Made by a program: the position numbers and the translations under genes
Virus record (IMG/VR): IMGVR_UViG_3300034104_004745
Span: 1-64,000 of that record
Length of the DNA stretch: 64,000 bases
Source: a virus
Lineage: Duplodnaviria > Heunggongvirae > Uroviricota > Caudoviricetes
Reading direction: 5' to 3' (one strand)
Part shown: one piece after another, positions 6,697-43,625 of the stretch
Layout of the letters: every line of letters begins with the position of its first letter
How positions within the stretch are numbered: position 1 is the first letter of the stretch
Notes under the pieces: model-generated
The model's database searches: none
Seen by the model: the letters and a program-made list of their open reading frames with translations, nothing else
What the model was told of the DNA's origin: nothing

Positions 6697-7911
6697 ATGA
6701 GGATATTATTGAACAAAGCACAAGTTAGTAGAATTATTGAAAATTATAATAATTCCAAAAATATAATTAAAGAAGAAACTGGTGGATTTTTTGCGAAACT
6801 ACCCCCAGGCTTCTCACAAGACGACTTTCTAAGTCCAGAACAAGCATGTGGTGCACAAGAAGAAGTTACTGAGGAAAACCAAACCCTAGACGATTTAAAA
6901 TTTGCTGCGCAATCCAGAGTAGACTCATTATTAAAAAGAAGAGCCGCTGGGGAAAAACATAGAAAAGGTGATCCTATTCTTCATTCATCGGTAGTTAGCA
7001 AAGTAGTGGATGAAAATGGTGTAGAAATAGATAAAGAAAAATTAAAAGCATTATTCTCCACAAGACCAGCAAGAATTATTAATGACACCAATAATAAATT
7101 ATTAAAATTAAACACCGTTGCAATAACAATGCCCACTTTCATGGGCTTAATGCATGATGAAACAGAAAATGTCCTAAGAATTGTAAATACCTGTCCCAAC
7201 GCAAAAGATTGCGTATTCAGTTGTTACACATTGAAGGGGCATTATACAATGTACGATGCCTCATCTAAAAAATCTTGTCAATCCCTTACATATCTTTTTA
7301 ACGATTATATGGGTTGGAAAAATCAAGTTCTCAGAGAATTAGAAGAGATACAATATAAAATAGAAAGACCTATATTAAGATGGCATGATGCTGGTGATTT
7401 TATGTCACGTAAGTATCTAGAAATCGCTATAGACATCGCCAAAGCCACTCCTGATGTTCAACACTATGCTTATACAAAAGAAGTGTCCCTTTTAAAATCA
7501 GCTAAATTGCCACCAAATTTCGAAATAACATTTTCGGAGGGAGGTAAAGAAGACATGTTAATAGATAAAACAAAAGAAAGATATTCAACAATTATATACA
7601 ACCAACCAGATAAAAATAAAAAAGCTAAAATCATAATTGATTTTAAAAAATATTATGATCAAAAGAAAATAGGTAGAGATAAAGACACATCCATTATATG
7701 GGTACCAAAGAGTGATGAACATATAATAGAGTTTAAAAAAGAACTATCAAAAGAAGCAGGTTTAGAATTGAGCTCTATTCTAACACTTAGAGAACTATTA
7801 AGAGTACCTGATAAACAAGAACGGATATACAATGTTATTGTTACCCCTAGCGATTCGGATTCTGCTGCAATTAGAAAAGACGTGTTGGGTATATTCTTAC
7901 TATACCATTAA
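6697..7911 (+). CDS. Hypothetical protein (404 aa). The start is re-called to the ATG at 6697 (MRILLNK).
   Basis: Plus-strand ORF divergent from 5067..6578. The upstream sequence carries AATATTTTATATAC and ATATATTTAT motif copies. Confidence 0.55.
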   Translation: MRILLNKAQVSRIIENYNNSKNIIKEETGGFFAKLPPGFSQDDFLSPEQACGAQEEVTEENQTLDDLKFAAQSRVDSLLKRRAAGEKHRKGDPILHSSVVSKVVDENGVEIDKEKLKALFSTRPARIINDTNNKLLKLNTVAITMPTFMGLMHDETENVLRIVNTCPNAKDCVFSCYTLKGHYTMYDASSKKSCQSLTYLFNDYMGWKNQVLRELEEIQYKIERPILRWHDAGDFMSRKYLEIAIDIAKATPDVQHYAYTKEVSLLKSAKLPPNFEITFSEGGKEDMLIDKTKERYSTIIYNQPDKNKKAKIIIDFKKYYDQKKIGRDKDTSIIWVPKSDEHIIEFKKELSKEAGLELSSILTLRELLRVPDKQERIYNVIVTPSDSDSAAIRKDVLGIFLLYH

Positions 7912-8840: not shown

Positions 8841-9623
8841 TTAATATATTGAGAATTTATCCTTTAGGTAATCAATCATATCCCCAAATCTTTTAAAGTT
8901 TTGTTTATCTTCATCACCAGTATCATATAATTGAATTTCTAGGTTAAATCCGTAGTCAAAATATATCTCAATATAAACAGCACCATAATCAGCATTTAGA
9001 ATCGCATCGGTATATCCACCCACATGACCTCTTTTGTCAAAATCAAACGTACTCTCCCATCTCCAATAATCATCATCAGCATTTGGATCATTATTAATTT
9101 GTGCTAATAAATCCAACAATATTTCTTTTTCATCTTTATCATTTTCAAATACTTCAGGGTATATACTATTCATAAAAACAAATATTAAACCATCTCTTCC
9201 TTTATCATATTTAACATTTGGATATTTTTTGGTCAGGAATCTGAAGTAAATCTTCATTCTTATGGGGTCGATGAAAATATAATCGCTATCACCTTCACCT
9301 CTTGCACCAGAGAATACTATCTTCTTTATTCTATATTTGGCCACAGCTTCTTTAACAATAGCGTCCACCGTATAAAGAACAGTGTTTAAGTGAGTAACAT
9401 CCTTTCCGGTTCTATATGCCACATTATCTTGACCAACCACACCGAAACCTAATTCAAATAGTTGTCTATCTTCTGTACCAAGTAGTGTTACCACGTACTC
9501 AATGTCATCAATATTAAAACTATATTCAATCCGATTCTCAACTTCCTTTGTTTGTTGGAATGGCATTATCTCATACTCTAATAATAAATTCTTTAACTGA
9601 TTTTCCGTGATTAATATCTTCAT
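8841..9623 (-). CDS. Hypothetical protein (260 aa).
   Basis: ATG at 9623, preceded by the TATATAAATAT motif. Confidence 0.55.
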   Translation of the reverse strand: MKILITENQLKNLLLEYEIMPFQQTKEVENRIEYSFNIDDIEYVVTLLGTEDRQLFELGFGVVGQDNVAYRTGKDVTHLNTVLYTVDAIVKEAVAKYRIKKIVFSGARGEGDSDYIFIDPIRMKIYFRFLTKKYPNVKYDKGRDGLIFVFMNSIYPEVFENDKDEKEILLDLLAQINNDPNADDDYWRWESTFDFDKRGHVGGYTDAILNADYGAVYIEIYFDYGFNLEIQLYDTGDEDKQNFKRFGDMIDYLKDKFSIY

Positions 9624-9676
9624 GTATATAAATATTTTAATTCCAATAACCGTGAGACTTAAGGTAGAAGTCCGGA

Positions 9677-11926
9677 TTATTTCTGTTCAAGTTTCTGTTT
9701 CAATCTAGCTAGAATTGAATCATTCCTATCTCTGAGTAAACTCATTAGTTTATTCCTATCGTTACCAGCATGCTGCATTAACTTCATCCATTTAGGTTTA
9801 AATTCATTACATGAATCAGGTTTAATTGGGCATATCAATCTAATATCCTCATCAAAATATACTTCATTCCATTTAACAAACCCTTCACCTTTATAATAAT
9901 CAATTAATACATTTAAAACAGTACCATCAATATCTTTACTTAATAAGTCATTAAGATGTCTATCTATTTTGCTACCTTCAAATTCAAATATGAATGTATA
10001 TAAGTGGCTTACTTTTCGATTTATATCATCCAAGATTTCATTTATTACCGGATCAAGAATATCTTTCATCTCTTTTGATAACATATTCTTATAATACTTT
10101 GGACCAAATAACTTTAATATTGTCTTTAATATTTTTTCATTATTAAATCCAACTTCCATAAACCTTTTAATAACATCAAAACGATTGTTTTCTATGATAC
10201 CTATTACAACTGTTTCATTTTCCATATAACTTGATAAACTTTTTAGTTTCTCAGTATCATCGTTTTTATAGTCAATTTTCTTATCACCCAAAGCATCTGT
10301 TCTGAATTTTGGTAACCAGGTTCTAACAAAGTTTTTGAATTTATCTGTTGGTGATCCCCAAAAAGCCTCAGTGTTTTCACAATACACTCCCGATGCAAAT
10401 CTTGATATTGGGTCCTTTATATTCCAATCACCGTGCTTAATCAAATAGAATATAATATCCCCGTTTTTAATCATTTGTTTTGGTCTAACACCTTCACCAT
10501 CATAAAACATATTATCCTCATTGCCAGCAAAAATTGTTTGAGATATATCTTTATAATCACTCAAATCCTCACAACTACTAAATCGATAGTACGATCCCAT
10601 AGATGCGATATCGTGAGAGTGTCTTGAAACAACACAATAAAATTTATCATTATCATCCAATCTTTTACTCTTTGCGTCAAGGAATAGATTATATCTATTA
10701 TAGATGTTTTGGTTATAATCTGATATGATCTTTGTTATCTTTACAACCTGATTTGTTTTATTATTGATAGCTCTGTTATTATCAAAGTCCTGGATGGTGT
10801 AGTCTATTTTAGCTAAGAATGATTTTATATCATCATATAATTGATTCTTTATATCCACATCCATTTCTAGCTTTGGCTTCTTAGCGGTCGGCTGTACTTG
10901 TTTACCTGTATTCAAATCATAATATAATCTAAACACATTTACACCGAATATATCCTCCAACCTTTTATCAGCACTGGTCTTCTTTTGAAATTGTCTGATT
11001 TGTTTGGATAAATTAAGATTAATGTTTTCGTTAACACTATCTTCCGGTTCTGAATTACTTAGTTCTTTATATTGTTTTATTTGTTTTGGCCATAATAGTT
11101 GGCTTCTAATATAATCATCTCTCTTAAGGTAATCTAAAACGTCTTTCCAATCATAACCTTTAGCATCTGTTATAGCTTTTAGTTTTTCCATAGAGAAATC
11201 ATCATTAGGTTTAAAGAACTTGTTAGATACTCTGTGGATTTTTTCATTTCCCTTGCTGTCTTTTTCAAGAATATCCCCGTATTTTCTTAAGAATGACTTT
11301 CTATCATATCTCGTCCATGGTTCATTGGTTTTGTTTCTAAAATATCTACCTTCATTAAACCATACCGATTTAATTTCATTTGGGTTTAGGTTACCAATGA
11401 ATAAAGCTTGCTTCTCATAGTTACCATATAAACTATCCCCAAGCTCTGGTCTATCACTCTTAGATATTCTATTGTTATGATAATCTCCCTCTGGATCTTC
11501 TTGTCTATACTTCTCCCTCTTTCTTATTGTCTCTTGATTTCTTTCTTCATCATCCTTAAAGCTTTTGGTATATTGTCCTTGAACAAAGTAAGTATCTTGC
11601 CCAGCCCACACCGGAGCTTCCAGATTTGTTGCACGTGTATCAAATTCTATTATGATCCCAGATCCGGCAAAGTTTTTCTTAACCACATTAAAGTCGGTGG
11701 AAACAAATAAACCCTTTGGGTTATTTCCAGATTCATATGAATATATTCTTGCAGCTCGCATTTCACCAGATAAACCATATGATAAAGTAACAAGAGCATC
11801 TGCTGGACTGTAGAAACCATGATAGACCCTGATCTTATCAGTATCTTTGATTGGTTCTTTGTCCTTGTAGTAATTTAAAACCTTTGTGTCTTCTAGAATT
11901 TGGTGGATTATACTTCTAAACTTCAT
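9677..11926 (-). CDS. Large hypothetical protein (749 aa). Its N-terminal module is shared with CDS 7945..8328 (MKFRSIIHQILED).
   Basis: Long ORF. ATG at 11926, preceded by the TATATAAATAT motif. Confidence 0.6.
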   Translation of the reverse strand: MKFRSIIHQILEDTKVLNYYKDKEPIKDTDKIRVYHGFYSPADALVTLSYGLSGEMRAARIYSYESGNNPKGLFVSTDFNVVKKNFAGSGIIIEFDTRATNLEAPVWAGQDTYFVQGQYTKSFKDDEERNQETIRKREKYRQEDPEGDYHNNRISKSDRPELGDSLYGNYEKQALFIGNLNPNEIKSVWFNEGRYFRNKTNEPWTRYDRKSFLRKYGDILEKDSKGNEKIHRVSNKFFKPNDDFSMEKLKAITDAKGYDWKDVLDYLKRDDYIRSQLLWPKQIKQYKELSNSEPEDSVNENINLNLSKQIRQFQKKTSADKRLEDIFGVNVFRLYYDLNTGKQVQPTAKKPKLEMDVDIKNQLYDDIKSFLAKIDYTIQDFDNNRAINNKTNQVVKITKIISDYNQNIYNRYNLFLDAKSKRLDDNDKFYCVVSRHSHDIASMGSYYRFSSCEDLSDYKDISQTIFAGNEDNMFYDGEGVRPKQMIKNGDIIFYLIKHGDWNIKDPISRFASGVYCENTEAFWGSPTDKFKNFVRTWLPKFRTDALGDKKIDYKNDDTEKLKSLSSYMENETVVIGIIENNRFDVIKRFMEVGFNNEKILKTILKLFGPKYYKNMLSKEMKDILDPVINEILDDINRKVSHLYTFIFEFEGSKIDRHLNDLLSKDIDGTVLNVLIDYYKGEGFVKWNEVYFDEDIRLICPIKPDSCNEFKPKWMKLMQHAGNDRNKLMSLLRDRNDSILARLKQKLEQK

Positions 11927-16602: not shown

Positions 16603-16638
16603 ATAAAAAAAAATCCCCGTAATAAATTACGAGGATTA
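16603..16638 (-). terminator. Rho-independent terminator (12-bp stem AATCCCCGTAAT/ATTACGAGGATT with one mismatch, then T9 on the minus strand).
   Basis: Hairpin plus a T-run on the minus strand. Confidence 0.5.
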
Positions 16639-16660: not shown

Positions 16661-16798
16661 TTAAAAAACCGCTTCGATTATGGCTTTAGCAAATACAAAT
16701 GCTGTTGTGAATATTAAAATACCAACAGCTGTTGCAATAACGAAGACCGCCACATCAACTAACTTTTCCCAATTAAATTTTTTCATATACTTAAACAT
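16661..16798 (-). CDS. Small membrane protein (45 aa).
   Basis: ATG at 16798. A single TM segment. Lies immediately upstream of the terminator. Confidence 0.3.
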   Translation of the reverse strand: MFKYMKKFNWEKLVDVAVFVIATAVGILIFTTAFVFAKAIIEAVF

Positions 16799-16839: not shown

Positions 16840-18081
16840 TTATTCAGCATCTTTTTCTACTTTATCATCAGACATTGATTCAACACCATCGATAATAAAT
16901 TTAGAACACTTAACAATCACATTTAAATTTACCATAATCTTTTCTTTATTTGCTTTCCATAAAGCTAAGTATGTTGGGTGTTGTGTAACTGGTAATTCAA
17001 AATACTTCATAATAGCATATGATACAGACTCAGCTTGAAGCTCTCTCATCTCTGATGTTTGAGCTGCTGGATCGTCAATGTAGAATGGAGATTTTGTCTT
17101 CCAGTGTAATAATTCGTGAGCAAGCTCGTGAGCAAGTACACTCGCTTCTGCAACACCTTCAACATCAGATGATAAATTAATATGTTCACCAGCACTAAAT
17201 CCTTTTTCCCCACCTTTTGCTGTATCTTTTGTTATTCGTATGTTTAAAGATTCCGCAAACGCTTTTAATCTAGTGGTCAATGCATCAGCAACTTCGCTCT
17301 TTTCATTCTCAGCAAACCATTTAGGTTGTTCTGGTATTTTACCTTCATCATTTAATGGATATGTGTCAGAAATATCATATACCTTACCCATAGAAAATCT
17401 GGTAACAGTTTGACCCTTCTTAACAGCATCGTCAACCTGGCTAAAATCAACACCTGTAGTGTCAACTTCTGCATTTGATTTAACTTGCATTGGGAACCAA
17501 ATCCAAATTGGTGTAGCGCCCTTTACAACCCCTCTATTGGTTTTCTTCCATGTGTTATAACCAGCAACTTTCTTAGCATCTTTCTTTTGTAGATAGATCA
17601 AGAATGAATTGGTTAAACTATAGTTATGGAATCTACTATAGAATGTTAAATAGTTTCTGATAGCAGCATCCATTGCAGCCTGATCTGTAGCATTAGCTAA
17701 GTCGTTAATGTACATATCAAGCTTATCCATGATTAAGTTCTTCTTTGATTGTTCAACATCAGTGTCTTCAATGAAATCCTCAAGCGTTTCTAGATCGTTA
17801 ATGATCTTTCTAAGTTTATTATGACCTTTAATTAAAACATTAATGGCTTCTAACTTATCATAATCACCAACCCAGTGTCCCAGATCTGGTTTCCAATCAA
17901 AGCCTAATTTTCTAAACTCTTTAGATAAACCCATGGTTTCTTTAACCCTGTCTCGCTTATCTTCTTTGTCTGAAAATATAATAATTTTCTTATTGGTATC
18001 GTCTTTTTTAAGGAAAATATCTTCCTTTAAGTTACTTTGTAGCGTTGGCCACTCGGATTCTTTAATTCTAATCTTTTTCAT
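16840..18081 (-). CDS. ArdC-like protein: N-terminal ssDNA-binding ArdC-N (DUF1738) domain plus a C-terminal zincin HExxH metallopeptidase domain.
   Basis: RFHNYSLTNSFLIYLQKKDAKKVAGYNTWKKTNRGVVKG matches the ArdC-N signature. AHELAHELLHW carries HExxH. Confidence 0.55.
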   Translation of the reverse strand: MKKIRIKESEWPTLQSNLKEDIFLKKDDTNKKIIIFSDKEDKRDRVKETMGLSKEFRKLGFDWKPDLGHWVGDYDKLEAINVLIKGHNKLRKIINDLETLEDFIEDTDVEQSKKNLIMDKLDMYINDLANATDQAAMDAAIRNYLTFYSRFHNYSLTNSFLIYLQKKDAKKVAGYNTWKKTNRGVVKGATPIWIWFPMQVKSNAEVDTTGVDFSQVDDAVKKGQTVTRFSMGKVYDISDTYPLNDEGKIPEQPKWFAENEKSEVADALTTRLKAFAESLNIRITKDTAKGGEKGFSAGEHINLSSDVEGVAEASVLAHELAHELLHWKTKSPFYIDDPAAQTSEMRELQAESVSYAIMKYFELPVTQHPTYLALWKANKEKIMVNLNVIVKCSKFIIDGVESMSDDKVEKDAE

Positions 18082-18092
18082 AATATATAAAT

Positions 18093-18117
18093 ATAAAAAA
18101 ACCGGGAAATATCCCGG
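18093..18117 (-). terminator. Rho-independent terminator (CCGGGAaataTCCCGG, then T7 on the minus strand) downstream of CDS 18123..18533.
   Basis: Same AAAAAACCGG hairpin family as the other terminators. Confidence 0.5.
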
Positions 18118-18122
18118 CTATT

Positions 18123-19731: not shown

Positions 19732-20208
19732 TTAATTTTCTTTTGATTTGTCCCATTTAGCTTTTCTTGCTTCTGGCGACAATTGAACATGCTCCTCTAT
19801 TGTATGAGGAATGTTAACCCTAACACATGTTTGTTGTAAACGGCAATTCATTAAATAGTTGTTTATATACCCCATCATGTTGGCGCTACCTATAGGATTT
19901 GCTGAATGTACATAAACTTGAGGAATGGGGATTCCTGTCTCAATACTTTTGTTTACTAACCATTTGCAGCAATCATAACCAGTTTTTTCTTGGATATTAG
20001 AATAATCTAATTGATAGTTGTTTCTAACATTTGTATAATATTCAGTCATCGCCTCATCACCTAAATCATGATCTAAAGATATTGTTTCAATATTCTCTAG
20101 ACCATGATACATAATAGTGCTTACAAACGCTTCGTAATCCCTAACTACAGTCCAACCCTCAACAGTAGGGGTTCTTACGTCATCTAAATAAATGCTTATT
20201 CTTTCCAT
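19732..20208 (-). CDS. Hypothetical protein (158 aa) with SLDHDLG and HSANP motifs.
   Basis: ORF. The motifs suggest an enzyme, but no family was identified. Confidence 0.5.
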   Translation of the reverse strand: MERISIYLDDVRTPTVEGWTVVRDYEAFVSTIMYHGLENIETISLDHDLGDEAMTEYYTNVRNNYQLDYSNIQEKTGYDCCKWLVNKSIETGIPIPQVYVHSANPIGSANMMGYINNYLMNCRLQQTCVRVNIPHTIEEHVQLSPEARKAKWDKSKEN

Positions 20209-23767: not shown

Positions 23768-24319
23768 ATGGGGATAAGCATTATTTTAACAGAGGCTCAA
23801 GTAGCTAACCTAGAGAAAAAAGTCGGTAAAATTGACCTAAACGAGTTCAACGTTTCGTTGTCTTGTACGAATATGACCTACGAGGCTTTAACATCTTTCT
23901 TAAACGGAAAAGAACAAAAGAAATTGGGTAACAACACAATAGTTCATATGATTAGAAACTGGGACACTAATGAAGAAGAGGTGGCAGTTAAATACTATGC
24001 CACAGATATTCTTAGTATTAATTCAGAAAATATTGTAACATTAAAAACCAATAACCATAATACAGCAACTACTAAAGCTAGATTAAACCAATTTTTAAGT
24101 TGCAGAGGCACTTACATATATCAAAAAAACCATGAGTGGTATATCAAAAATGAGATAGAAACTGTTGAATTTAGAGATGGTATACAAATTTTACCTGATG
24201 GTCAATTTCATATGCAAGGTCATATAGACCATAACAAAATACAAACGTATTTGGATAGGGCAAAATCATTGGATATTGATCCAAAATACAGAGAACTTTA
24301 TGGTTTATCTGACGATTAA
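23768..24319 (+). CDS. Hypothetical protein (183 aa).
   Basis: Plus-strand ORF in a divergent arrangement. Its 3' end overlaps the 3' end of 24316..27414. Confidence 0.5.
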   Translation: MGISIILTEAQVANLEKKVGKIDLNEFNVSLSCTNMTYEALTSFLNGKEQKKLGNNTIVHMIRNWDTNEEEVAVKYYATDILSINSENIVTLKTNNHNTATTKARLNQFLSCRGTYIYQKNHEWYIKNEIETVEFRDGIQILPDGQFHMQGHIDHNKIQTYLDRAKSLDIDPKYRELYGLSDD

Positions 24320-27300
24320 GATTTCATAGTAAACTTACTGTAATCACCGGTTTGGTGATTGTACTTATAAAATATATCTTGTAAGTTCTTAATGATATAG
24401 GTTTTACCTGAAAGATCTATTTTATTTAAAGTTACACCCTTAAATTGTGGATGTAAAACTACTTCACCATTTTGTTTAATCAACCCCCAAAGATTTTCTT
24501 CAGTTTTAACCGCAATATTACCGTTTTTGTCTATAGGACTATTTTCTACATATCTAGCCAAGAATGGAACAACATCGGTACACGAGAATATGGTTCTTTT
24601 AATACCTTTAGCTGATAATATATCAATGTGTTCTTGTTCACTAAACTTCCTAAACCCATGATCGATATACTCACAGAACATTGTGTAATATTCAAATAGA
24701 TCTTGTGAAATTTCTTTTAGACTATCAGTAAACATTTCTTTCATTTCTTCTTCAGATACATTATCAATTTTTCTGATCAACGCATCATTCATTTTAGAAC
24801 CGAAGAATGACATGAAATTTCTTTTAACATCACCACTAATCCTTCTAAAGTCATTTACAACTTTGAATATGGTTTTGTCATTAAACTTATCAGCGAACTC
24901 TTGACCCTTATCCATATCTGATGCTGTTTTTAATAGTTCAGCCTTGATTTCATTTGAATAGTTATCAAAATTTAATTCCCCACTAAGAATTGCATTAATA
25001 ATTTCTGGCCAACTACCTTTATCATTAATATTAAATCTTAATGCTGGGTTAGCATCATAAACTCTTTGTAAATTCTGTGGAGATAAATCTGATAATTGAA
25101 AATTATCACCATACCTATGAACACCTTGCGATGTTAATTGAGTAACCGGAAATCTAGTATTAATTAAGAAGTCAACAATTTGTGGGTGCAATCTCGATGT
25201 TGGTTTTTTATTACCGTGTCTATGGAAATCACCAAGAACACCACCTGGTCTGTAATCTACCGTTATCAAGGATTCACCTTCACCAAAATCATTTATACCT
25301 CTTAGTGATATTAACTTACTACCTGGTGTATTTGCTCTTGCACAGTGACCCATTCTTTCAGCTTCTTGAGAACAATAGTTTTTATGTAAGTTAACCCAAT
25401 AGTAACCAATACCTTTATCATTTCTATAATCAATAAACACATCACCCTTTTCAGTATAGTTAGATTCCTTTCTTGCTTCTAATGTATCATGCCATTCTTC
25501 TGCTTGAGTGTAAGCATCTTGAAATGACATTTGGCGAATGTTTAATTGCTCTCTTCTAGGCGCTCTAAACCAATGTAAAATATATTCATAGGCGCTCTTA
25601 TATCTTCGGTCCCAAACATTACTTCCCTCAGGCCCATCACTATTTAATAAACCAACAACGTATCTTTCTGGTTCTTCATCACTTGGTATTTGAGTTTCTT
25701 TAATGATTTCTTTTAAGAAACTACCAGCTATCCAAATCGATATCTTCTTACTTAACATATGGAACTCGTTTGCCCATTCATCGTTAAACCCTAAAACGTT
25801 TTTGATTGCTTGTCTCTTATCTGATTCAATTAATAACTCTTCAGCTAATGTGGTTGTTTGATTTCTGGTTTTTAATTGAGCATAGATCGGAGCATTCTTA
25901 TCTCTGATATTTCCAATTAACTTTTTTAAACCAGCTTCATATGTTCCCGCTTCAGCGTACGCATAACCATTTTCGTTTTTAAAATCATTAACCAAATCTG
26001 ATGCTGTTTTACCTTTTACAAGATATTTTCTAGCAATTAAATCATAGTAAAGATTTACACCATCTTTAAAACTTGCTTGTGGATTATCCTTTTTTGCTGT
26101 GTTACCAACATTAAAAGGATTTTTAGTTTTGATTGGTCTATCGTTAGGATTAGTACTAAGACCGCCCTCTAAAGTTAATTGAGCTAATGCCAATTCTGGT
26201 GGTACATATTTTCCATATCTCTTAAATACCCTTTCAGCAGCAACTGCCATCATCTCCCCACTCACTTGAGCACTAGGGTTTCTTAATCGAATAAAGTTGT
26301 CACATATTTTTTTATATGATTCAACACCTTCTCCAGTATTTAAATCTAAATCAGTAAAATCAATCGAACCTCCAGTTGTAACTGCAGGGTCAATATGTTT
26401 TTTAATATCGTCAGATGTAATATTTTTTGATTTTAAATCACTAATCAATTGTTTAACCATTTCTGTAGATATGGTTGCGCCGCCTAAAACAGTTTCAGAA
26501 TTTCCACTATCATAGTAGGTGCCGATAGATGAACCAAAATATTGCATTGGATCAACTCTTTGACCATTTTTCTTAAGTGTTAAGTGTAAGTGAGGTCCTT
26601 TTGAATTTCCTGAACCTCGAGCACCGACAGCACCTCCGGTTAATCCTATCACGTGACCTTGATTAATAACATCTCCAGTCTTTACATTTATACCAGATAA
26701 ATGACAATAACTACTTCTTAAGCCTTCAGCATGTTCGATTGATATACCATCACCACATCTTGAATCTAAAGAACCAGCAGCTATTACTTTACCATCTGCG
26801 ATTGCTTTAATTGGTGTACCAACTTTAGCTCCGATATCTATACCACCATGAATTCTATTTCCTCTTTTTTCATTAAAACCATGTCTAATATCACTTGTAA
26901 TTGGTACTGGTGTTATCAATACCATTTCATTTAGATCGGTAGCATTCGATTGGGCAGCAGCGTTTACTTCTGCTGTATCGTCATCAACAATATCTTTATC
27001 TTGTTTGTATTTGTTTACAGCCGCTGCTGTTTCTGGGCCAAATAATCCGTCAGTACCAAATTTAGGAAAACTGTAACCCAATAATTGTAAACCAATTTGT
27101 ACAGCTTCAACCCCTTGTTGTCTGGTCATTGAACCAAACTTTTGCTGTGTAATTGGAGATTTTATACTATCAAGTACCTTGTAGAAGTCATCAACATTAG
27201 CACTAATAAAATCTGCTTTATCTGCTATATCAGTACTTTTTTTCTCAACTGGAACATCTAATCCTGAAATAAAATCCTTAACTGCGTCAATTCCTTTATT

Positions 27301-27414
27301 TGCGTAATCCGCTCCTTTGGATATTAAATCATCCAAAACGTCTTCATTGATGTTCTCGTTTGAGAGTCTGCGTTTTAACCTTACAATCTGGTCTTCGTTA
27401 AATATAAATCTCAT
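24316..27414 (-). CDS. Multidomain peptidoglycan hydrolase (1032 aa): PG_binding_1-like domain, M23 zinc endopeptidase, a glucosaminidase-like domain and a roughly 500-aa C-terminal region of unknown function. Likely a virion-associated lysin.
   Basis: M23 motifs HGGIDIG...D and GPHLHL. PG-binding block GLFGPETAAAVNKYKQ. Glucosaminidase-like block AQLTLEGGLSTNPND...NPFNVGN. Confidence 0.75.
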   Translation of the reverse strand: MRFIFNEDQIVRLKRRLSNENINEDVLDDLISKGADYANKGIDAVKDFISGLDVPVEKKSTDIADKADFISANVDDFYKVLDSIKSPITQQKFGSMTRQQGVEAVQIGLQLLGYSFPKFGTDGLFGPETAAAVNKYKQDKDIVDDDTAEVNAAAQSNATDLNEMVLITPVPITSDIRHGFNEKRGNRIHGGIDIGAKVGTPIKAIADGKVIAAGSLDSRCGDGISIEHAEGLRSSYCHLSGINVKTGDVINQGHVIGLTGGAVGARGSGNSKGPHLHLTLKKNGQRVDPMQYFGSSIGTYYDSGNSETVLGGATISTEMVKQLISDLKSKNITSDDIKKHIDPAVTTGGSIDFTDLDLNTGEGVESYKKICDNFIRLRNPSAQVSGEMMAVAAERVFKRYGKYVPPELALAQLTLEGGLSTNPNDRPIKTKNPFNVGNTAKKDNPQASFKDGVNLYYDLIARKYLVKGKTASDLVNDFKNENGYAYAEAGTYEAGLKKLIGNIRDKNAPIYAQLKTRNQTTTLAEELLIESDKRQAIKNVLGFNDEWANEFHMLSKKISIWIAGSFLKEIIKETQIPSDEEPERYVVGLLNSDGPEGSNVWDRRYKSAYEYILHWFRAPRREQLNIRQMSFQDAYTQAEEWHDTLEARKESNYTEKGDVFIDYRNDKGIGYYWVNLHKNYCSQEAERMGHCARANTPGSKLISLRGINDFGEGESLITVDYRPGGVLGDFHRHGNKKPTSRLHPQIVDFLINTRFPVTQLTSQGVHRYGDNFQLSDLSPQNLQRVYDANPALRFNINDKGSWPEIINAILSGELNFDNYSNEIKAELLKTASDMDKGQEFADKFNDKTIFKVVNDFRRISGDVKRNFMSFFGSKMNDALIRKIDNVSEEEMKEMFTDSLKEISQDLFEYYTMFCEYIDHGFRKFSEQEHIDILSAKGIKRTIFSCTDVVPFLARYVENSPIDKNGNIAVKTEENLWGLIKQNGEVVLHPQFKGVTLNKIDLSGKTYIIKNLQDIFYKYNHQTGDYSKFTMKS

Positions 27415-34654: not shown

Positions 34655-36568
34655 CTAAAGAAGTCTTAATAGATCATCATAAAGGTTATCTTCTTTCCCT
34701 TCAATTTGTACACCGTTAATGATTAATGGGATCTTTTCTTTTGCTGTTGATTTGATAGAACCTTTAAAAGATAAAATTCTATCTTGTAGGATGACTAATG
34801 CTGAATCAAATCTTTCCGGTGGTTTAGCATTACAGAAATATTTTTCTTGTACACAACCTCTATCACGAGTGTCATATTCACAGGTTACTCTTTCATTACC
34901 GATAGGGCTATCTTCTCTAAGAGATACAATAATTGATTTTTCTTTATCTGCATACGATGCAACACAATGATGCATATGTTCACCCTCTTCAGTGTATTCA
35001 GCGTCAATCTTCAACAACACAGGATAATATATACCAATAATATCATTATTTTCGGTTTTGATTTTTATTGGGTTTTCAATAAGTTTTATTAATCTATCCT
35101 CGAATATGTATTTGATACTATATCCCTTTTTGATCGCTCTATCTAGTTTCGCTAATTCTAAATGTTCTCTATGGAAATCAGCAAGATTAGTTGCTCGCAT
35201 TTCAATATCAGGTAGATGTTTTCTTATTTTAATTAACATGTCTAAATGATCATTGAACGCACTAAATTGTGAACGAACAAGACTGTTACCAATTGTTACA
35301 GTATTCCTCTCACTATAAAGAGAACCATTATTAATTGTTTCGTTGATAAATTCATTTATTAATTTAAGTAAACAACTTTTTTCTGAATCTTTTATATCAT
35401 AAATGTGTTTATTATCTATTGCGTAATAGATGGGGGTATCATCACCAGGTATGTTTTTTTCTTTTTCTATTAACCAATATTCTTCATTTATGTTATGTAT
35501 GTATTTGTGTAAATCTACATAACCAAAATATCTAGCCAATAATATTAATCTACTAATATCTGTTTTAGGGAATTTATGTAACAATCTAATTGTACTCTTT
35601 GATTTAATACCAATTCTATCTAAGATTGCAGCCACTAATTTATTATCATTCTTTTTTAAGAATTTTTTAGTTGGGTAGGCTTCCATTAATAGGCGTCTAT
35701 ATTCATTTGGTACTTTAATTTTGTTAACCGCTATAAATGTTTCCATAACAATCGATAGTATTTTTTTTCTAGCACTTCCTTCGGTATTGGAAATGATATT
35801 AGCGTTATGTGGAAGTTTAGATAAGATGGTATGAAACAATGTTTTCATGAACTCATCATCATTAAAAATATCACTAGCTTCTTTGTTTACTGGGTGATGA
35901 CTTTCGGAATTATCACCAGAAAAGTGAAGAGTAACAGGCCCTACAGTTCTACCAAAAAATGATTGGAGAACTTGTGAAAAATGCTTGAAATTGTTCTGTC
36001 TTATTTTAGGTTTATCAGCACCTTCATAACTGATAATATTCCCAGTTTTAAAGTTTATTTTAAAACCTAATGCGGTTTTGATCTTCCTGAAAAATTTACT
36101 GTTTACTGTTCTTGTTTTTCTATGAGTATAAAACCTTACTGAAATGGTGTCCTCATCAACAGCAATATTTCTTTCATGTATTTCTACAGAAACTGCACTA
36201 AGTGGTCTACCATAGTGTTTTAATAAATGACGTTCTTTAGTGGTATAAAACGTTGGGTTTCTGTGATTCCAATTATCAAAGTTTAGTATTTCACCATCCG
36301 GTTCCTCACTATAAAAATATTTTGTGTTCTTCTTATTAAGTTTCTTTTTATTCGGAACCATCAATTGAAACATACTCTTTAACCTTGCTGAAGGCTTTCT
36401 ACCATCCTCCCTGTTAAAGAAATCAGCATCTAAAAAATCGACGTTTTCTAACCCAAGCTGAAACTTTTTATGGATTTCTTTTTCCTCCTTACTTTTGATA
36501 GAGGTATAATCTTTGTACGGCTCTATTCCATAGAACTGAAACCGCTGAGCTAATACGATTTTTTTCAT
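34655..36568 (-). CDS. PcfJ-like protein (637 aa; EGEHMHHCVASY motif).
   Basis: The C-terminal motif resembles the PcfJ signature. Paralogous to 33206..34603. Confidence 0.55.
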   Translation of the reverse strand: MKKIVLAQRFQFYGIEPYKDYTSIKSKEEKEIHKKFQLGLENVDFLDADFFNREDGRKPSARLKSMFQLMVPNKKKLNKKNTKYFYSEEPDGEILNFDNWNHRNPTFYTTKERHLLKHYGRPLSAVSVEIHERNIAVDEDTISVRFYTHRKTRTVNSKFFRKIKTALGFKINFKTGNIISYEGADKPKIRQNNFKHFSQVLQSFFGRTVGPVTLHFSGDNSESHHPVNKEASDIFNDDEFMKTLFHTILSKLPHNANIISNTEGSARKKILSIVMETFIAVNKIKVPNEYRRLLMEAYPTKKFLKKNDNKLVAAILDRIGIKSKSTIRLLHKFPKTDISRLILLARYFGYVDLHKYIHNINEEYWLIEKEKNIPGDDTPIYYAIDNKHIYDIKDSEKSCLLKLINEFINETINNGSLYSERNTVTIGNSLVRSQFSAFNDHLDMLIKIRKHLPDIEMRATNLADFHREHLELAKLDRAIKKGYSIKYIFEDRLIKLIENPIKIKTENNDIIGIYYPVLLKIDAEYTEEGEHMHHCVASYADKEKSIIVSLREDSPIGNERVTCEYDTRDRGCVQEKYFCNAKPPERFDSALVILQDRILSFKGSIKSTAKEKIPLIINGVQIEGKEDNLYDDLLRLL

Positions 36569-37921: not shown

Positions 37922-39052
37922 TTAATTGCTTAATGGCGCTTTTATTGCTGGATGTGATTGATAGTTTTCTAATATTACATCCTTATCACCAAATGAAAAT
38001 ATACCATCCATAACATATACTGTTGGTAGATCAAATGGTTCTCTTTTTATTTGTTCTTTGGCTTGTTCAATATGATTTTTATATAGATGAACATCCCCTA
38101 AGTTACCAATTAATTCATCAGGAACCATGTTCATTTCATCTGCAATCATTTTTAATAGTAAACCATATGATGCAATATTAAAAGGTAGTCCCAAGAATGT
38201 GTCCACAGATCTTTGGTTCCACATCAATGAGATAGCTCTTGTTGGTATATTGTGTTTAATCATTTCATCTTCAGTATAATATTGCGGAAGATTTTCCGTT
38301 AGACCTAATTTTTTATCCATTAAAAGAACTCTTTCAGTTTCATCTAAAACTCTTGTATAAACTTGAAATCCATAATGACAAGGAGGTAAAACCATTTGGT
38401 CTAATTCACCTACATTCCAAGCAGATACCATTAACCTTCTGCTATCAGGATTTGTTTTAAGCTCGTCGATTAGATTTTGAATTTGGTCAATAGTTTTATC
38501 ACCTTCAACGTATGTATCGTTTCCAGTTAATGGGTCTTTCAGTGTGGTTTTAATTAAAGTTTTGGTGTGCCATCCTCTCCATTGTGAACCATATATTGGG
38601 CCTAGCTCTCCCCACTCTTCTGCAAACCCATCATCAGTTTTAATTAGGTTGATAAATTCTTCTTGTGTTAACGGTTCTAAATCGTCTGGATTACTAAATA
38701 ACTTTTCAGTGTCATTATCCATACCCAATATATCTCCACACATATATCCATCAATAATTTCATTTATATATTTGGTATAGTTTTTATACGCGTCACCATT
38801 CCAAATGTTACATCCATTCATCACCAGATACTTGATGTTGGTGCTACCGCTTAAGAACCATATCAACTCAGTTACCATTGTCTTCCAAGCCATCTTCTTA
38901 GTTGTAAGTAATGGAAACCCTTGTGACATTTTATGACGAATTTGTCTACCGAAAACTGAAATAGTTCCAGTACCGGTTCTATCTGTTTTAACAACACCGT
39001 TATCTAAAATGTCCTGTAATAAATCTTGGTATTTACTATCTAATGTGTTCAT
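37922..39052 (-). CDS. thyA: Thymidylate synthase (ThyA family) with two lineage-specific insertions. The start is re-called to the ATG at 39052 (MNTLDSKYQDLLQDILDNG), which aligns with the ThyA N-terminus.
   Basis: The following motifs are present: TDRTGTGT.SVFG, ELIWFLSG.TN, LPPCH (catalytic Cys), LPFNIASY (Asn implies dUMP specificity), GDVHLYKNH and a C-terminal HPAIKAP. There are insertions of about 65 aa and about 30 aa relative to E. coli ThyA. Confidence 0.85.
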   Translation of the reverse strand: MNTLDSKYQDLLQDILDNGVVKTDRTGTGTISVFGRQIRHKMSQGFPLLTTKKMAWKTMVTELIWFLSGSTNIKYLVMNGCNIWNGDAYKNYTKYINEIIDGYMCGDILGMDNDTEKLFSNPDDLEPLTQEEFINLIKTDDGFAEEWGELGPIYGSQWRGWHTKTLIKTTLKDPLTGNDTYVEGDKTIDQIQNLIDELKTNPDSRRLMVSAWNVGELDQMVLPPCHYGFQVYTRVLDETERVLLMDKKLGLTENLPQYYTEDEMIKHNIPTRAISLMWNQRSVDTFLGLPFNIASYGLLLKMIADEMNMVPDELIGNLGDVHLYKNHIEQAKEQIKREPFDLPTVYVMDGIFSFGDKDVILENYQSHPAIKAPLSN

Positions 39053-41010: not shown

Positions 41011-42369
41011 ATGAAGAAAAAAATATTATTGTTATCTGATGATTTAAGAATGTCATCGGGTATCGCTACTATGTCGAAAGAGATTGTGATGGGTACCATT
41101 CACAAATATGATTGGGTGCAGCTTGGCGCCGCAATTAAACATCCTGAGTTCGGTAAAATTGTTGACATAAACGATGATATCCGTAAGAGAACAGGTGTTA
41201 AAAACGCTAATTTAAAAATAATCCCTTACAATGGTTATGGTGATATTGGGGTTTTAAGAAAACTAATTAAGGAAGAAAAACCAGACGCTATTCTCCATTT
41301 CACCGACCCACATTATTGGCAGTGGTTATATGACAATGAGCATGAGATTAGACAACAAGTTCCATTATTGTTTTATCACATATGGGATGATTTGCCAGAT
41401 CCATTATATAATAGAAACTATTATGAAAGTTGTGATTGGTTAGGTTGTATATCTAAACAAACATATGGTATTGTTCATAGAGTTGGTAAATTAGAAAATG
41501 GTTCCACATGGAAACCTTTAGAAAATTGGCAGATCAAATATGTACCTCATGGTATTAACCCAGAAACATTTAAACCATTAGATAAAGTTTCAGATGAGAT
41601 AACACAACTTGTACACGGAGATAAGAAGTATGATTTTGTTCTTTTCTATAATAATAGAAATATCAGAAGGAAACAACCATCAGATGTTATCTATTCCTTT
41701 AAATTGTTTTGTGATAAACTACCAAAAGAAAAAGCTGATAAGTGTTTGTTATTAATGCACACAGCAGCTGTAGATGAAAATGGTACAGACTTACCTGCTG
41801 TTATTGAGGCGCTATGCCCATATGATGTTAAATTCACTGGATTAAAGTTAGAGCAAGATAAGTTAAACGAAATCTATAATCTTGTTGATTGTACAATTAA
41901 CATTGCTAATAACGAGGGATTTGGTTTAACTACTGCAGAATCGTTAATGTCTGGCACACCAATCATCGCTAATGTTACAGGTGGCTTACAAGATCAAATG
42001 GGTTTTGATTTCAGTGAAGATGATTATATTACAATTGGTTCATTACACCACAAGGGGAAATCTAGAAGTTTAGTTCAAGAGGGTGAATGGGTTGAAGCAG
42101 TTTGGCCTGCAGCAATTAATCTAAACGGATCTGTACCAACACCATACATTTTTGATGATCGAGTTAATGATGATGATGTTGCTGACGCTATTATGAAATT
42201 ATATAAAAGCGGAAGAAAGAAAAGAAAAGCAAAAGGATTAAAAGGTAGAGAGTTCATGATGAATAACCTATCAAATAAAATAATGTGTGATAAAATGATT
42301 GAGGGTATTGAAGATACACTTAAGAATTGGGAACCTAAAAAAAGATTTGATTTATATAAAATAGTATGA
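41011..42369 (+). CDS. Glycosyltransferase, family 4-like (GT-B fold).
   Basis: C-terminal NNEGFGLTTAESLMSGTPIIA matches the GT4 E-x7-E region. Confidence 0.7.
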   Translation: MKKKILLLSDDLRMSSGIATMSKEIVMGTIHKYDWVQLGAAIKHPEFGKIVDINDDIRKRTGVKNANLKIIPYNGYGDIGVLRKLIKEEKPDAILHFTDPHYWQWLYDNEHEIRQQVPLLFYHIWDDLPDPLYNRNYYESCDWLGCISKQTYGIVHRVGKLENGSTWKPLENWQIKYVPHGINPETFKPLDKVSDEITQLVHGDKKYDFVLFYNNRNIRRKQPSDVIYSFKLFCDKLPKEKADKCLLLMHTAAVDENGTDLPAVIEALCPYDVKFTGLKLEQDKLNEIYNLVDCTINIANNEGFGLTTAESLMSGTPIIANVTGGLQDQMGFDFSEDDYITIGSLHHKGKSRSLVQEGEWVEAVWPAAINLNGSVPTPYIFDDRVNDDDVADAIMKLYKSGRKKRKAKGLKGREFMMNNLSNKIMCDKMIEGIEDTLKNWEPKKRFDLYKIV

Positions 42370-43625
42370 GTAAACCGTTTTTATTATTTAGAGGGCCGGT
42401 ACAAACTAGAAGTGGGTATGGCGCGCATTCAAGAGACCTTTTACAGGCATTGTATGAAATGAATTCATACGATATTAAAATTGATAGTTGTTCTTGGGGG
42501 TCAACACCACTGACAGCATTAGAGAAAGATAATGTTTTTCATAAGTGGATTGAATCAAATATCATTTCATCATTAGCAATACAACCAGATGTGTATGTTC
42601 AAGTAACCGTACCAAACGAATTTCAAAGAGTTGGTAAGATTAACATCGGAATAACTGCTGGAATTGAAACAACTGTCGCACCTAAATCTTGGGTTGATGG
42701 TTGTAATAAAATGGATATGATTATTACTACATCACAATTTTCAAGTGAGGTATTAATGAGTACTGTTTACAATGAGACAGATAATGTTACAGGTAAATTG
42801 ATCAAACAACATAAGATTGAAAAACCTATAAAGGTTCTTTTTGAAGGTGTTCATAATGACATATTCAATAATGAATATAATGATATTGATTTGAATATCA
42901 ATGAAGATTTCGCATACCTTTTTGTTGGCCATTGGTTGAAAGGTAATTTAGGCCAGGACAGAAAAGATGTGGGTATGTTAATTAAATGTTTTGTTGAAGC
43001 ATTTAAAAATGAAGAAGATAAACCAGCATTGATTCTTAAGACTTCATCAGCAACTTTCTCAATAAAACAAAGAGAAGACTTTGCTAAAAAGATAAAAGAG
43101 CTTGTTGGAAACATTGAGAACCCTCCATCGATTTATCTATTGTTTGGTGAATTAACAGATAAAGAAATGAACAATCTTTACAATCACCCTAAAATTAAAG
43201 CAATGATTAGTCTCACCAAAGGTGAGGGATTCGGTAGACCTTTATTAGAATTTACTATGACTGGTAAGCCTGTGATCGCATCTAACTGGTCGGGGCACAA
43301 AGACTTCTTACCAATGGATAAAGGGATTATGATTGGTGGTAAACTAAATGAGGTAGATGAAAGCGCTATTGACGACTTTATTTTAAAGGGTTCAAAATGG
43401 TTTACAGCAAATTATAATGAAGCCGCTGAAGTTATGAAGATTGTGAAGAGCGACTATCAAAAGTTTTTAGATCGTGCTGAAAATCTGAGAATAGAGAATT
43501 CAACTAAGTTTAGTTTTCAGAGAATGATTGAAGAATTTGAAAAGTTATTACCTAAAACAGTTTCACAAGAAGAATCACCAAAACAAAAACCAATTAATTT
43601 ACCTAAATTAAATAAAATAAAATAG
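42366..43625 (+). CDS. Glycosyltransferase, family 4-like (GT-B fold).
   Basis: KGEGFGRPLLEFTMTGKPVIASNWSG GT4 motif. 4-nt overlap with the upstream GT. Confidence 0.7.
   Translation: MSKPFLLFRGPVQTRSGYGAHSRDLLQALYEMNSYDIKIDSCSWGSTPLTALEKDNVFHKWIESNIISSLAIQPDVYVQVTVPNEFQRVGKINIGITAGIETTVAPKSWVDGCNKMDMIITTSQFSSEVLMSTVYNETDNVTGKLIKQHKIEKPIKVLFEGVHNDIFNNEYNDIDLNINEDFAYLFVGHWLKGNLGQDRKDVGMLIKCFVEAFKNEEDKPALILKTSSATFSIKQREDFAKKIKELVGNIENPPSIYLLFGELTDKEMNNLYNHPKIKAMISLTKGEGFGRPLLEFTMTGKPVIASNWSGHKDFLPMDKGIMIGGKLNEVDESAIDDFILKGSKWFTANYNEAAEVMKIVKSDYQKFLDRAENLRIENSTKFSFQRMIEEFEKLLPKTVSQEESPKQKPINLPKLNKIK

Follow-up and report, generated by a model that had tools for sequence, protein, structure and literature searches.

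An ArdC-like protein with an intact zincin site in a large uncultured phage, and its possible role in counter-defence

Annotating a phage gene as ArdC-like is in itself unremarkable: a PHROGs entry exists, and two papers have recorded members from jumbo and huge phages. ArdC itself, however, belongs to a small set of anti-restriction proteins that still lack an explained mechanism. The window, a 64-kb stretch of DNA from an uncultured phage with a genome of roughly 200 kb, encodes an ArdC-like protein. To our reading, which we hold at a probability of about 0.5, it is a DNA-binding protease of the ArdC superfamily that acts as a counter-defence factor.

The gene, its domains and the active site

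The gene occupies 16840..18081 on the minus strand, starts with ATG and encodes a complete protein of 413 aa (47.3 kDa). A copy with 100% identity at the protein level is found on a 198,825-bp contig. A word-indexed search with the protein returned 867 homologues, and an exhaustive profile search 13,138 representative clusters (both at E<=1e-3). Because of these numbers we regard the ORF as a real gene and not as a chance frame. Megablast of 8 kb gave no match among deposited phages, and hence there is no close cultured relative. NCBIfam searches with the protein matched no family. Its parts are as follows.

18022..18081, minus strand: N-terminal peptide, residues 1-20 (MKKIRIKESEWPTLQSNLKE), predicted to be disordered and ending in [L/I/V]-x-E20
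17818..18021, minus strand: extra small alpha/beta domain, residues ~21-88, in the order beta-beta-alpha-alpha-beta-beta-alpha
17347..17817, minus strand: ArdC-N-type domain, with leading helices (residues 89-150) and a basic core (151-245)
16873..17295, minus strand: gluzincin metallopeptidase domain, residues ~263-403
17104..17130, minus strand: active-site helix H318-E319-L-A-H322-E323-L-L-H326
17029..17043, minus strand: glutamate helix E347-L-Q-A-E351, with E347 as predicted third metal ligand (E229 in R388 ArdC)
16969..16971, minus strand: Y371, counterpart of R388 ArdC Y255 (TYLALW aligned with AYVQSW)

Pfam ArdcN matched residues 141-215 over profile positions 33-102 of 123 (E=1.5e-6) with 28.9 bits, above the gathering cutoff of 22.6 bits; relatives scored 33-52 bits. 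The first-pass annotation had quoted the block RFHNYSLTNSFLIYLQKKDAKKVAGYNTWKKTNRGVVKG as an N-terminal ArdC-N match. This block is present (residues 150-188) and its ArdC-N character stands, but its position is not N-terminal: it lies mid-protein, with ~105 conserved residues ahead of it. The core (residues 151-245) carries a net charge of +4 at a pI of 9.4, close to the family medians (+4, pI 9.5), and the protease domain is acidic. The ArdC-N-type domain (about residues 105-245), of the ArdC-N/Rad4-BHD kind, is predicted to bind ssDNA, as its basic core suggests. For the extra N-terminal domain, no Pfam family was matched. DUF5710 was dropped as a candidate because only 2/26 members hit it, with E about 0.17. 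A homology search with this domain alone yielded 12 proteins, most of them fragments, and revealed no architecture that was new. The N-terminal part (residues 1-110) weakly resembles XPB-DRD, UvsW-N and MotA-CTD.

The zincin motif HELAHELLHW, already recognised in the first-pass annotation, spans residues 318-327. H318, E319, H322, E347, A350 and Y371 are found in all of the 41 family members compared, at identities as low as 28%, while H326 is kept in 40/41 and E323 in 34/41. Since E319 is invariant and E323 varies, the catalytic register is H318-E319-x-x-H322, and the register H322-E323-x-x-H326 suggested by the BLASTP pairing was rejected. Protease activity is predicted. Among the Pfam peptidase models, the ArdC-type PF18818 (MPTase-PolyVal) did not match even at E<=10, and the best peptidase match was Peptidase_M78 (PF06114) with 19.4 bits, under its cutoff of 22. 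Among the relatives, only the short proteins P0224 (24.8 bits) and P0246 (28.0 bits) exceeded that cutoff.

Relationship to plasmid ArdC and to other DNA-dependent proteases

The ArdC of R388/pSa (PDB 6I89, 6SNA; PF08401 + PF18818) shares the order of the core domains, ArdC-N followed by a gluzincin. Alignment of the phage family with the ArdC profile by hhalign (probability 97.6%, E=2.6e-12, 217 columns) paired residues 152-403 with residues 48-291 of R388 ArdC and was co-linear across both domains. At this profile-profile level, the phage peptidase is homologous to the PF18818-type domain. The phage protein also resembles the solved ArdC structure in three dimensions. Counterparts of H201, E202, H205, E229 and Y255 are all kept, in line with the gluzincin set of an HExxH helix, a Glu in (E/H)xx(A/F/T/S/G) and a conserved Tyr, and the combination of a basic N-domain with an acidic protease is that given for R388 (PMC7213743). 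Both domains being homologous to ArdC, the first-pass assignment is supported, and judged from sequence the protein very probably belongs to the ArdC superfamily and retains a complete zincin site. Proteins of the ArdC family are expected to prefer single-stranded DNA and to relieve restriction (type I hsdRMS, with shielding of ssDNA from HhaI).

However, the two proteins differ in several respects. BLASTP between them finds only an 8-residue match at the active site. R388 ArdC scores 164.8 bits with PF18818, which all 120 ArdC homologues listed carry, versus no match for the phage protein, and 138.7 bits with ArdcN, versus 28.9 bits over profile positions 33-102 only. Sequence searches of the PDB, with the single sequence or a profile, did not reach ArdC and gave only chance matches at E>0.1; the relationship is therefore remote. 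R388 ArdC lacks the extra ~105 N-terminal residues (a short tag and a conserved alpha/beta domain, together with which the added N-terminal domain measures ~90 residues), and its active-site helix does not read HExxHxxxH as the phage helix does. The genetic setting differs as well: plasmid ArdC lies in the leading region, where it would be expressed early in the recipient, whereas the phage gene lies behind a late-type element in a large phage genome rather than among the leading or establishment genes of a conjugative element. In R388 ArdC, inactivation of the protease by E229A left anti-restriction fully intact; HhaI escaped degradation, and no protease substrate was found (PMC7213743).

The phage peptidase and the M78 family (IrrE, ImmA, CapP) have in common the minimal gluzincin fold, in which HExxH is followed downstream by a glutamate helix with ExxA. 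Unlike these proteins it is fused to ArdC-N rather than to GAF-like or HTH domains, and its gene shows no conserved linkage to a gene for a cognate HTH substrate. IrrE and CapP are regulated by DNA damage or ssDNA. Such regulation has been described for IrrE, which together with Spartan, likewise a DNA-dependent protease, is the nearest structural relative of the ArdC metalloprotease domain (PMC7213743). Foldseek against the viral structures of BFVD found nothing at E<=0.001; weak matches of the protease domain (E>0.001) were to viral IrrE-like proteins.

Polyvalent proteins most often pair ArdC-N with a zincin peptidase, and these proteins were proposed to enter a new host with the DNA (PMC5512222). 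Long relatives of the window protein (600-1180 aa) are similar in build. The window protein itself differs in having three domains (a DNA-binding hub, a peptidase and a small domain without assigned family) and one predicted enzymatic activity. Furthermore, ArdC-N is typically an N-terminal 'header' in polyvalent proteins but internal or C-terminal in the phage family.

Phage relatives, the upstream element and the N-terminal peptide

The phage setting proposed in the first-pass annotation was borne out: relatives were found on phage contigs of 44-540 kb, and T4-type portal, terminase, gp13 and sheath genes accompany the family on contigs of up to 540 kb. PHROG 7245 ('anti-restriction protein') matches residues 144-407 of the window protein and 9/9 long relatives tested. 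A short two-domain form sits within a phage block of small ORFs (locus L007), with a SprT-like gene nearby. In the long relatives, the module is C-terminal to an unannotated extension of 170-790 aa, and 26/40 of these extensions belong to one unannotated family. Searches of the extensions against Pfam and PHROG gave no family except one DUF5661 match, and comparisons revealed no extra N-domain copies and no meaningful similarity to window genes.

Jumbo and huge phages have already been reported to encode ArdC-like proteins (PMC7824862; bioRxiv 10.1101/2025.02.27.640493), and their occurrence in phages is not new. In jumbo phages the peptidase is either SprT-like or ArdC-like (PMC7824862). Huge phages of 203-677 kb carry 102 ArdC genes in 101 genomes, with the R388 key residues kept, and ArdC is said to be absent in other viral forms (bioRxiv 10.1101/2025.02.27.640493). 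The latter claim contrasts with the distant homologues that we found in an Enterococcus phage of 44 kb and in Gordonia phages of 135 kb. Neither PHROG 7245 nor the two reports give the extra N-terminal domain, the M78-like signature, the N-terminal peptide or the late-type element. Experimental work on phage ArdC-like proteins was not found in the searchable literature.

Upstream lies a gene whose product is a small HTH protein (Bac_DnaA_C, 52.5 bits). It accompanies the ArdC-like gene in the window and in L087 only and is absent beside it in L003, L004, L005, L085 and L086. Other neighbours are a DnaQ-like exonuclease in the window and PolB in L003, where the ArdC-like gene starts 3 nt after gp13. 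Since the neighbours differ in L003, L004, L005 and L086, synteny was dropped as a functional clue. The following elements flank the gene.

18100..18119, minus strand: terminator-like hairpin AGCCGGGATATTTCCCGGTT with T-run, between the HTH gene and the ArdC-like start codon
18082..18094, minus strand: ATATTTATATATT element, first base 13 nt upstream of the ATG, a candidate promoter or initiation element of late type
16661..16798, minus strand: small hydrophobic ORF (45 aa) directly downstream, conserved in L001, L002 and L087, probably in the transcription unit of the ArdC-like gene
16612..16637, minus strand: terminator-like hairpin with T-run that closes the unit

A hairpin before the start codon recurs, with differing stem sequences, in L085, L087, L015 and L005. 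The core motif ATATTTAT has 12 sites in the window; 10 are upstream of gene starts on the same strand, 9 of them at 12-14 nt. It was found ahead of 22/50 ArdC-like genes compared with 174/1059 other ORFs (Fisher p=8e-6), and in both L003 and L005 it stands ahead of the genes for terminase, portal, gp13 and sheath. Among 111 motif-bearing ORFs classified with Pfam there were baseplate gp25, prohead protease, terminase, EndoVII and lysins, but no replication enzymes; SprT-like proteins belong to this class too, and homing endonuclease, NUDIX and NAPRTase genes are also preceded by the motif. The label 'late' is based on these genes downstream of the sites. Identification of the element with the T4 late promoter TATAAATA was dropped, because the element is its reverse complement and its orientation to genes is consistent at 10/12 sites. 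A scan for sigma-70 promoters stayed at chance level (27 found versus 24.4 expected). Because the hairpin and ATATTTAT precede the gene, and the element in related phages heads terminase, portal, sheath, baseplate, prohead-protease and lysis genes, we infer late expression and possible packaging; for late expression itself the chances appear even. As far as we found, no earlier report links the hairpin and ATATTTAT to an ArdC-like gene.

In the predicted structure, residues 1-19 have a pLDDT <50. E20 was present in 29/29 sequences, and position 18 was L in 19, I in 8 and V in 2 of them. A PSSM of the peptide matched only extreme N-termini, namely those of three other window proteins, all of the motif-bearing class. 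In L086, an unrelated neighbouring protein has the same first 14 residues with synonymous codon differences; as codon usage differs between the copies, a nucleotide-repeat artefact is unlikely. The tag is missing in some lineages, which for L005 cannot be due to a mis-called start given an in-frame stop just upstream. A general test for similarity of N-termini was only modestly above control. Late-class signals, together with an N-terminal peptide that several proteins share and that closes with [L/I]-x-E, resemble the gp21-cleaved capsid-targeting sequences of T4, and a gp21-family protease is present in this phage group.

Candidate function and its alternatives

As an anti-restriction factor, as ArdC is for conjugative plasmids, the protein would bind single-stranded or distorted parts of the phage's own DNA, shield it and bring the protease onto it. 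If made late, it might be packaged and injected with the DNA and hence be at hand for the next entry. Taken by itself, the counter-defence role falls just short of an even bet on present sequence evidence. Double-stranded DNA phages do not enter as ssDNA, and the plasmid mechanism may therefore not transfer. Also counted against this role were that the R388 protease is not needed for anti-restriction, that the peptidase fails the ArdC-type Pfam model and that the gene neighbourhood is not conserved.

T4 IPI* and P1 DarA/DarB are virion-delivered anti-restriction proteins. Delivery of the ArdC-like protein in the virion is a tentative idea, and we consider it rather doubtful. The same holds for the full scheme, in which ATATTTAT would be the late promoter of the phage group, with transcripts that are often leaderless or near-leaderless. 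The genome-specific N-terminal peptide, which several late-class proteins share and whose end is the invariant [L/I/V]-x-E20, would send the protein into the prohead; a gp21-type prohead protease would remove the peptide, and the mature DNA-binding protease would then accompany the injected genome and guard it on entry. If delivered in this way, the protein would be the phage counterpart of an ArdC that travels with plasmid DNA, and would match T4 IPI* in function.

An alternative is a DNA-tethered housekeeping protease of the Spartan/SprT/Wss1 type acting on the phage's own genome. Made late, such an enzyme would rid replicated DNA of covalently or tightly bound proteins (stalled replisome or topoisomerase adducts, host nucleoid proteins), either ahead of packaging or while it proceeds. 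It would act beside endonuclease VII, the enzyme that removes DNA branches. Spartan and IrrE as the nearest structural relatives of the ArdC metalloprotease domain (PMC7213743), an upstream element common to terminase, portal and EndoVII genes, the SprT-like proteins in the motif-bearing class and near the short form in L007, the alternation of SprT-like and ArdC-like peptidases in jumbo phages (PMC7824862) and the DnaQ-like exonuclease (window) and PolB (L003) as neighbours all fit this explanation. We nevertheless consider it unlikely: ArdC-N proteins occur overwhelmingly in contexts of conflict and invasion (PMC5512222), no ArdC-family protein is known with a crosslink-repair phenotype, and a patchy, mobile distribution with unconserved synteny better suits an accessory counter-defence gene than core DNA maintenance.

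Distinctly less probable is a regulatory protease of the IrrE/ImmA/CapP type, in which ssDNA would switch on cleavage of one HTH regulator, of host or phage, and thereby reprogramme transcription. The peptidase is nearest in sequence to Peptidase_M78/IrrE (19.4 bits; P0224 and P0246 above the cutoff), its BFVD matches are viral IrrE-like proteins, the HExxHxxxH signature is conserved and the small HTH gene (Bac_DnaA_C, 52.5 bits) lies directly upstream. But a terminator hairpin splits that gene from the ArdC-like gene, its HTH is not of the XRE repressor type, and it is absent beside the gene in L003, L004, L005 and L086; M78 regulators typically adjoin their substrate gene, and no conserved pairing was seen. 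Moreover, the M78 score of the window protein is under the Pfam cutoff and homology over the whole module points to ArdC. Slightly less probable again is a protease that is dispensable or only processes itself or polyprotein-like relatives, the activity of the protein being stoichiometric coating of DNA by ArdC-N and the extra N-terminal domain. R388 ArdC E229A is fully functional, MPTase domains were proposed to free neighbouring domains by autoproteolysis (Iyer et al., PMC5512222), and the many relatives of 600-1180 aa with the module C-terminal to a long unannotated extension might need processing. However, the catalytic residues, including the substrate-stabilising Tyr, are invariant in 41/41 members, even in short stand-alone forms with nothing to process, which argues for a selected catalytic function.

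The ArdC protease is perfectly conserved, yet dispensable in the only assay available. Here, the same active site is invariant in a very large phage-borne branch comprising thousands of sequence clusters; the protease is therefore under strong selection outside conjugation, and this branch offers new systems for finding its substrate. If late expression and injection are true, they would explain how a DNA-binding counter-defence protein acts at the entry of a double-stranded DNA phage, and the upstream element together with the N-terminal tag would provide a rule that predicts injected proteins in uncultured large phages.

Domain architecture and active site

The ArdC-like ORF is a real gene under selection. 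A word-indexed search retrieved 867 homologues of its product, including a 100% identical one on a 198,825-bp contig and others on contigs of 270-540 kb. In an exhaustive profile search with the protein, 13,138 representative clusters passed E<=1e-3, and 7,241 of them passed E<=1e-10. The features of the gene and its product are:

16840-18081, minus strand: ArdC-like ORF, ATG start, 413 codons
18087-18094, minus strand: ATATTTAT at the ArdC-like gene
18119-18100, minus strand: terminator-like hairpin and T-run, after the upstream HTH gene and before the ArdC-like gene
16637-16612, minus strand: second terminator-like hairpin, past a 45-codon hydrophobic ORF downstream of the ArdC-like gene
residues 1-19: disordered peptide
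residues about 21-88: small beta-beta-alpha-alpha-beta-beta-alpha domain (pLDDT 75-86)

The first-pass annotation had described an N-terminal ArdC-N-like block and a C-terminal HExxH metalloprotease. Both blocks are present, but RFHNY...VVKG occupies residues 150-188 (HELAHELLHW, 318-327) and the ArdC-N-like block is therefore central rather than N-terminal. Pfam matched ArdcN to residues 141-215 with 28.9 bits (cutoff 22.6), and PHROG 7245 ('anti-restriction protein') spanned residues 144-407 (E=1.5e-8). For the protease domain, Peptidase_M78 reached 19.4 bits, below its cutoff of 22, and the Pfam search gave no MPTase-PolyVal match, whereas the plasmid prototype R388 ArdC scored 138.7 bits on ArdcN and 164.8 bits on MPTase-PolyVal. 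Direct sequence searches from the phage protein to ArdC structures found no connection either. Because of the missing MPTase-PolyVal match, the sub-threshold M78 score and these failed searches, we place its kinship to ArdC at the superfamily level; judged by sequence, it falls in a phage clade (PHROG 7245) outside the plasmid ArdC family proper.

A broadened family alignment (n=41 sequences, identity down to 28%) was compared with a canonical ArdC alignment that used the R388 sequence from its plasmid record. Profile-profile comparison gave 97.6% probability (E=2.6e-12) over 217 co-linear columns, with residues 152-403 aligned to R388 48-291, that is, over both domains. Together with the ArdcN match, this bears out the domain identity originally claimed.

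Motifs paired between the ArdC-like protein and R388 ArdC
HELAH with LAHEATH
E347-L-Q-A-E with E229-L-I-A-E
T-Y371-L-A-L-W with A-Y255-V-Q-S-W

The proposed zincin site held throughout the family: H318, E319 and H322, as well as E347, A350 and Y371, were each found in 41/41 sequences, H326 in 40/41 and E323 in just 34/41. Since E319 is invariant while E323 varies, the alignment assigns the catalytic register to H318-E319-x-x-H322, which an additional conserved His extends to HExxHxxxH. The metal ligands, catalytic base and substrate-stabilising Tyr of the gluzincin in the ArdC structural paper are exactly the residues invariant here (PMC7213743). Family-wide, a basic ArdC-N core is paired with an acidic protease, as in R388 ArdC (PMC7213743). 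A phage-encoded fusion of a DNA-binding module homologous to ArdC-N with an intact gluzincin site is established.

ArdC-like proteins in phages are already known. Such peptidases were noted in jumbo phages in 2021 (PMC7824862), a 2025 preprint counted 102 ArdC genes across 101 huge phages and reported that the key residues of R388 are kept (bioRxiv 10.1101/2025.02.27.640493), PHROGs already lists PHROG 7245 as an anti-restriction protein, and anti-defence annotation pipelines routinely report ardC. The window protein is therefore another such member, and was recognised correctly at first reading. The preprint states that outside the huge phages viruses lack ArdC (bioRxiv 10.1101/2025.02.27.640493); tblastn, however, picked up distant homologues, 24-27% identical and with E as low as 8e-13, in a 44-kb Enterococcus phage, 135-kb Gordonia phages and short fecal phage contigs. 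Searches of the literature found no description of the extra N-terminal domain, the M78-like signature, the late-type element ATATTTAT or the shared N-terminal tag.

N-terminal region and shared tag

About 105 residues of the protein have no R388 ArdC counterpart. Short relatives of 260-300 aa consist of the two-domain core only; two of five exceed the M78 cutoff, and a 118-kb phage-like contig encodes one of the five. Many relatives are longer (600-1180 aa) and carry the entire 400-residue module C-terminal to an unannotated extension of 170-790 aa, and 26 of 40 such extensions (P0122-P0150 and others, from loci including L030, L031, L034 and L035) form one unannotated family. One relative, P0137, has two copies of a KIKIT(E/K)xQ peptide, near residues 3 and 113.

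We scanned a PSSM from 46 family N-terminal peptides over all 18,846 positions of the window proteins. At >=8 bits it gave four matches, all at residues 2-4 of a protein and none elsewhere:

18022-18081, minus strand: peptide of the ArdC-like protein
8841-9623, minus strand: g13
6697-7911, plus strand: GP88 homologue
23768-24319, plus strand: Gp96 homologue

The peptides at the start of these otherwise unrelated proteins resemble one another (MKILITENQLK, MRILLNKAQVS, MGISIILTEAQV and MKKIRIKESEW), and all four genes carry ATATTTAT. On L086, a 270-kb relative, a 208-aa protein encoded immediately before the ArdC-like one and unrelated to it begins with exactly the same 14 residues (MEKDIVKLIKLLVE), with synonymous codon differences between the two genes (9369-9995 and 10001-11233); this tag differs in sequence from that of the window phage.

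All family sequences read [L/I/V]-x-E at positions 18-20, where the disordered peptide meets the first folded domain, and E20 is invariant. Internal proteins of T4 carry capsid-targeting sequences that are cut off behind (L/I)-x-E by the gp21 prohead protease, and by analogy the family peptide resembles these. The shared peptide may serve in capsid targeting or in another kind of sorting. Three points limit the evidence: some lineages lack the tag, a general N-terminus similarity test was only modestly above control, and the [L/I]-x-E tripeptide is common in these proteins.

A 1032-aa protein (24316-27414, minus strand) has PG_binding_1 and Peptidase_M23 in its first 300 residues, followed by a long unannotated remainder. 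As it combines the late-type element with a tag-like N-terminus (MRFIFNEDQIV), it is a candidate virion-associated cell-wall hydrolase.

Upstream element and genome context

Directly past the hairpin at 18119-18100 lies ATATTTATATATT, then the ATG of the ArdC-like gene. This hairpin is kept at four loci encoding relatives (L085, L087, L015, L005), where stem sequences differ and pairing is preserved (stems CCGGG/CCCGG, CCGGAA/TTCCGG, CCCGGA/TCCGGG and CCCCGA/TCGGGG). On both strands of the 64-kb window, ATATTTAT occurs just 12 times. Ten copies lie upstream of a same-strand gene start, nine of them with the first base 12-14 nt before the ATG, a short spacing that suggests leaderless or near-leaderless mRNAs. 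Besides the ArdC-like gene, the starts are:

minus strand: 2357, 6578, 9623, 11926, 15344, 27414, 31452
plus strand: 6697, 23768

Among these genes are those for the M23 peptidase and for the GP88 and Kyano_Gp96 homologues, as well as several unknowns; no replication or nucleotide-metabolism gene of the window is preceded by ATATTTAT. Among relatives, the element precedes terminase and portal in L005 and gp13 and sheath in L003, where the ArdC-like gene follows gp13 by 3 nt. No copy precedes the genes for PolB, ThyA, DHFR, RNA ligases or exonucleases in related phages.

In 51 non-redundant low-GC viral loci, TATTTAT was found within 45 nt upstream of 22/50 ArdC-like genes versus 174/1059 other ORFs (Fisher p=8e-6; background expectation about 2% per upstream window). 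A Pfam census of 111 motif-bearing ORFs yielded baseplate gp25, gp21-family prohead protease, terminase, endonuclease VII and several cell-wall hydrolases, as well as homing endonucleases and SprT-like proteins, and no replication enzymes. From the genes it accompanies, we infer that the element labels genes of a late, virion-and-lysis expression class, the ArdC-like gene among them; ATATTTAT resembles a late promoter for this group of phages.

The window is AT-rich (~32% GC), contains no tRNA genes and has no close relative that we found among deposited phages. The genes nearby are of kinds common in large phages and encode a DnaQ-like exonuclease, a small DnaA-C-type HTH protein, an HNH endonuclease, a T5orf172/GIY-YIG-like protein, thymidylate synthase, glycosyltransferases, the M23 peptidase and the GP88 and Kyano_Gp96 family proteins. 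Contigs with relatives encode T4-type portal, terminase, gp13, sheath and family-B polymerase; among the loci compared, gene order around the ArdC-like gene is conserved only between close relatives.

Further observations in the window and on L086
12686-13225, minus strand: 179-aa 2H-phosphoesterase-superfamily protein (2_5_RNA_ligase2, 28.8 bits; anti-CBASS Acb1, 25.0 bits, below the cutoff of 27), by sequence possibly a second counter-defence gene
19732-20208, minus strand: 158-aa cREC_REC 'cyclic-phosphate processing receiver' domain protein (84.4 bits); L085, L086 and L087 also have this family close to the ArdC-like gene
34655-36568, minus strand: 637-aa protein with PcfJ-like domain (45.1 bits); PcfJ is known from conjugative plasmids and, like ArdC, is a conjugation-associated family present in this phage
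37922-39052, minus strand: thymidylate-synthase homologue, 376 aa, ~100 residues longer than the Pfam model spanned
41011-47762, plus strand: island of glycosyltransferases and a nucleotide-sugar epimerase near thymidylate synthase, coinciding with a GC skew flip
51927-52928, minus strand: radical SAM protein (CxxxCxxC at residues 9-16; Pfam 36.9 bits) amid unannotated genes
54489-57877, minus strand: three tandem genes (371, 368 and 377 aa) with similar N-termini (…SGSL…PRG.RANRP), adjoining a 1951-aa ORF (57895-63750); no Pfam family for the one protein tested
L086 12476-14205 and 16452-17189: IS605-type Y1 transposase and OrfB/TnpB gene (Cas12f1-like TNB domain); these and a weak reverse-transcriptase match lie <6 kb from the ArdC-like gene of this 270-kb phage contig

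Possible roles

A counter-defence role, which the first-pass annotation had put forward and which the analysis supports as a candidate function, appears most likely: the protein would bind the phage's own DNA and act on proteins attacking it. A protease-dead R388 ArdC is still functional and no substrate was found (PMC7213743); because the protease is dispensable there and the phage genome enters as double-stranded DNA, our confidence in this role is limited.

Two readings gain appeal from the late-class signals of the gene. One is delivery of the protein together with phage DNA, in line with the proposal that polyvalent proteins travel with DNA into a new host (Iyer et al., PMC5512222). The other is a late task, Spartan/SprT-like stripping of proteins off DNA ahead of packaging. 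M78-like sequence and fold matches point to a third possibility, an IrrE/CapP-like regulatory protease, but the conserved pairing with a repressor gene is missing. That the ArdC-like protein is late-expressed, capsid-targeted and injected is a tentative proposal, to which we give roughly one chance in four. If confirmed, the late-type element and the shared tag would raise the gene above an ordinary annotation and yield a testable model in which the virion delivers an ArdC-like protein.
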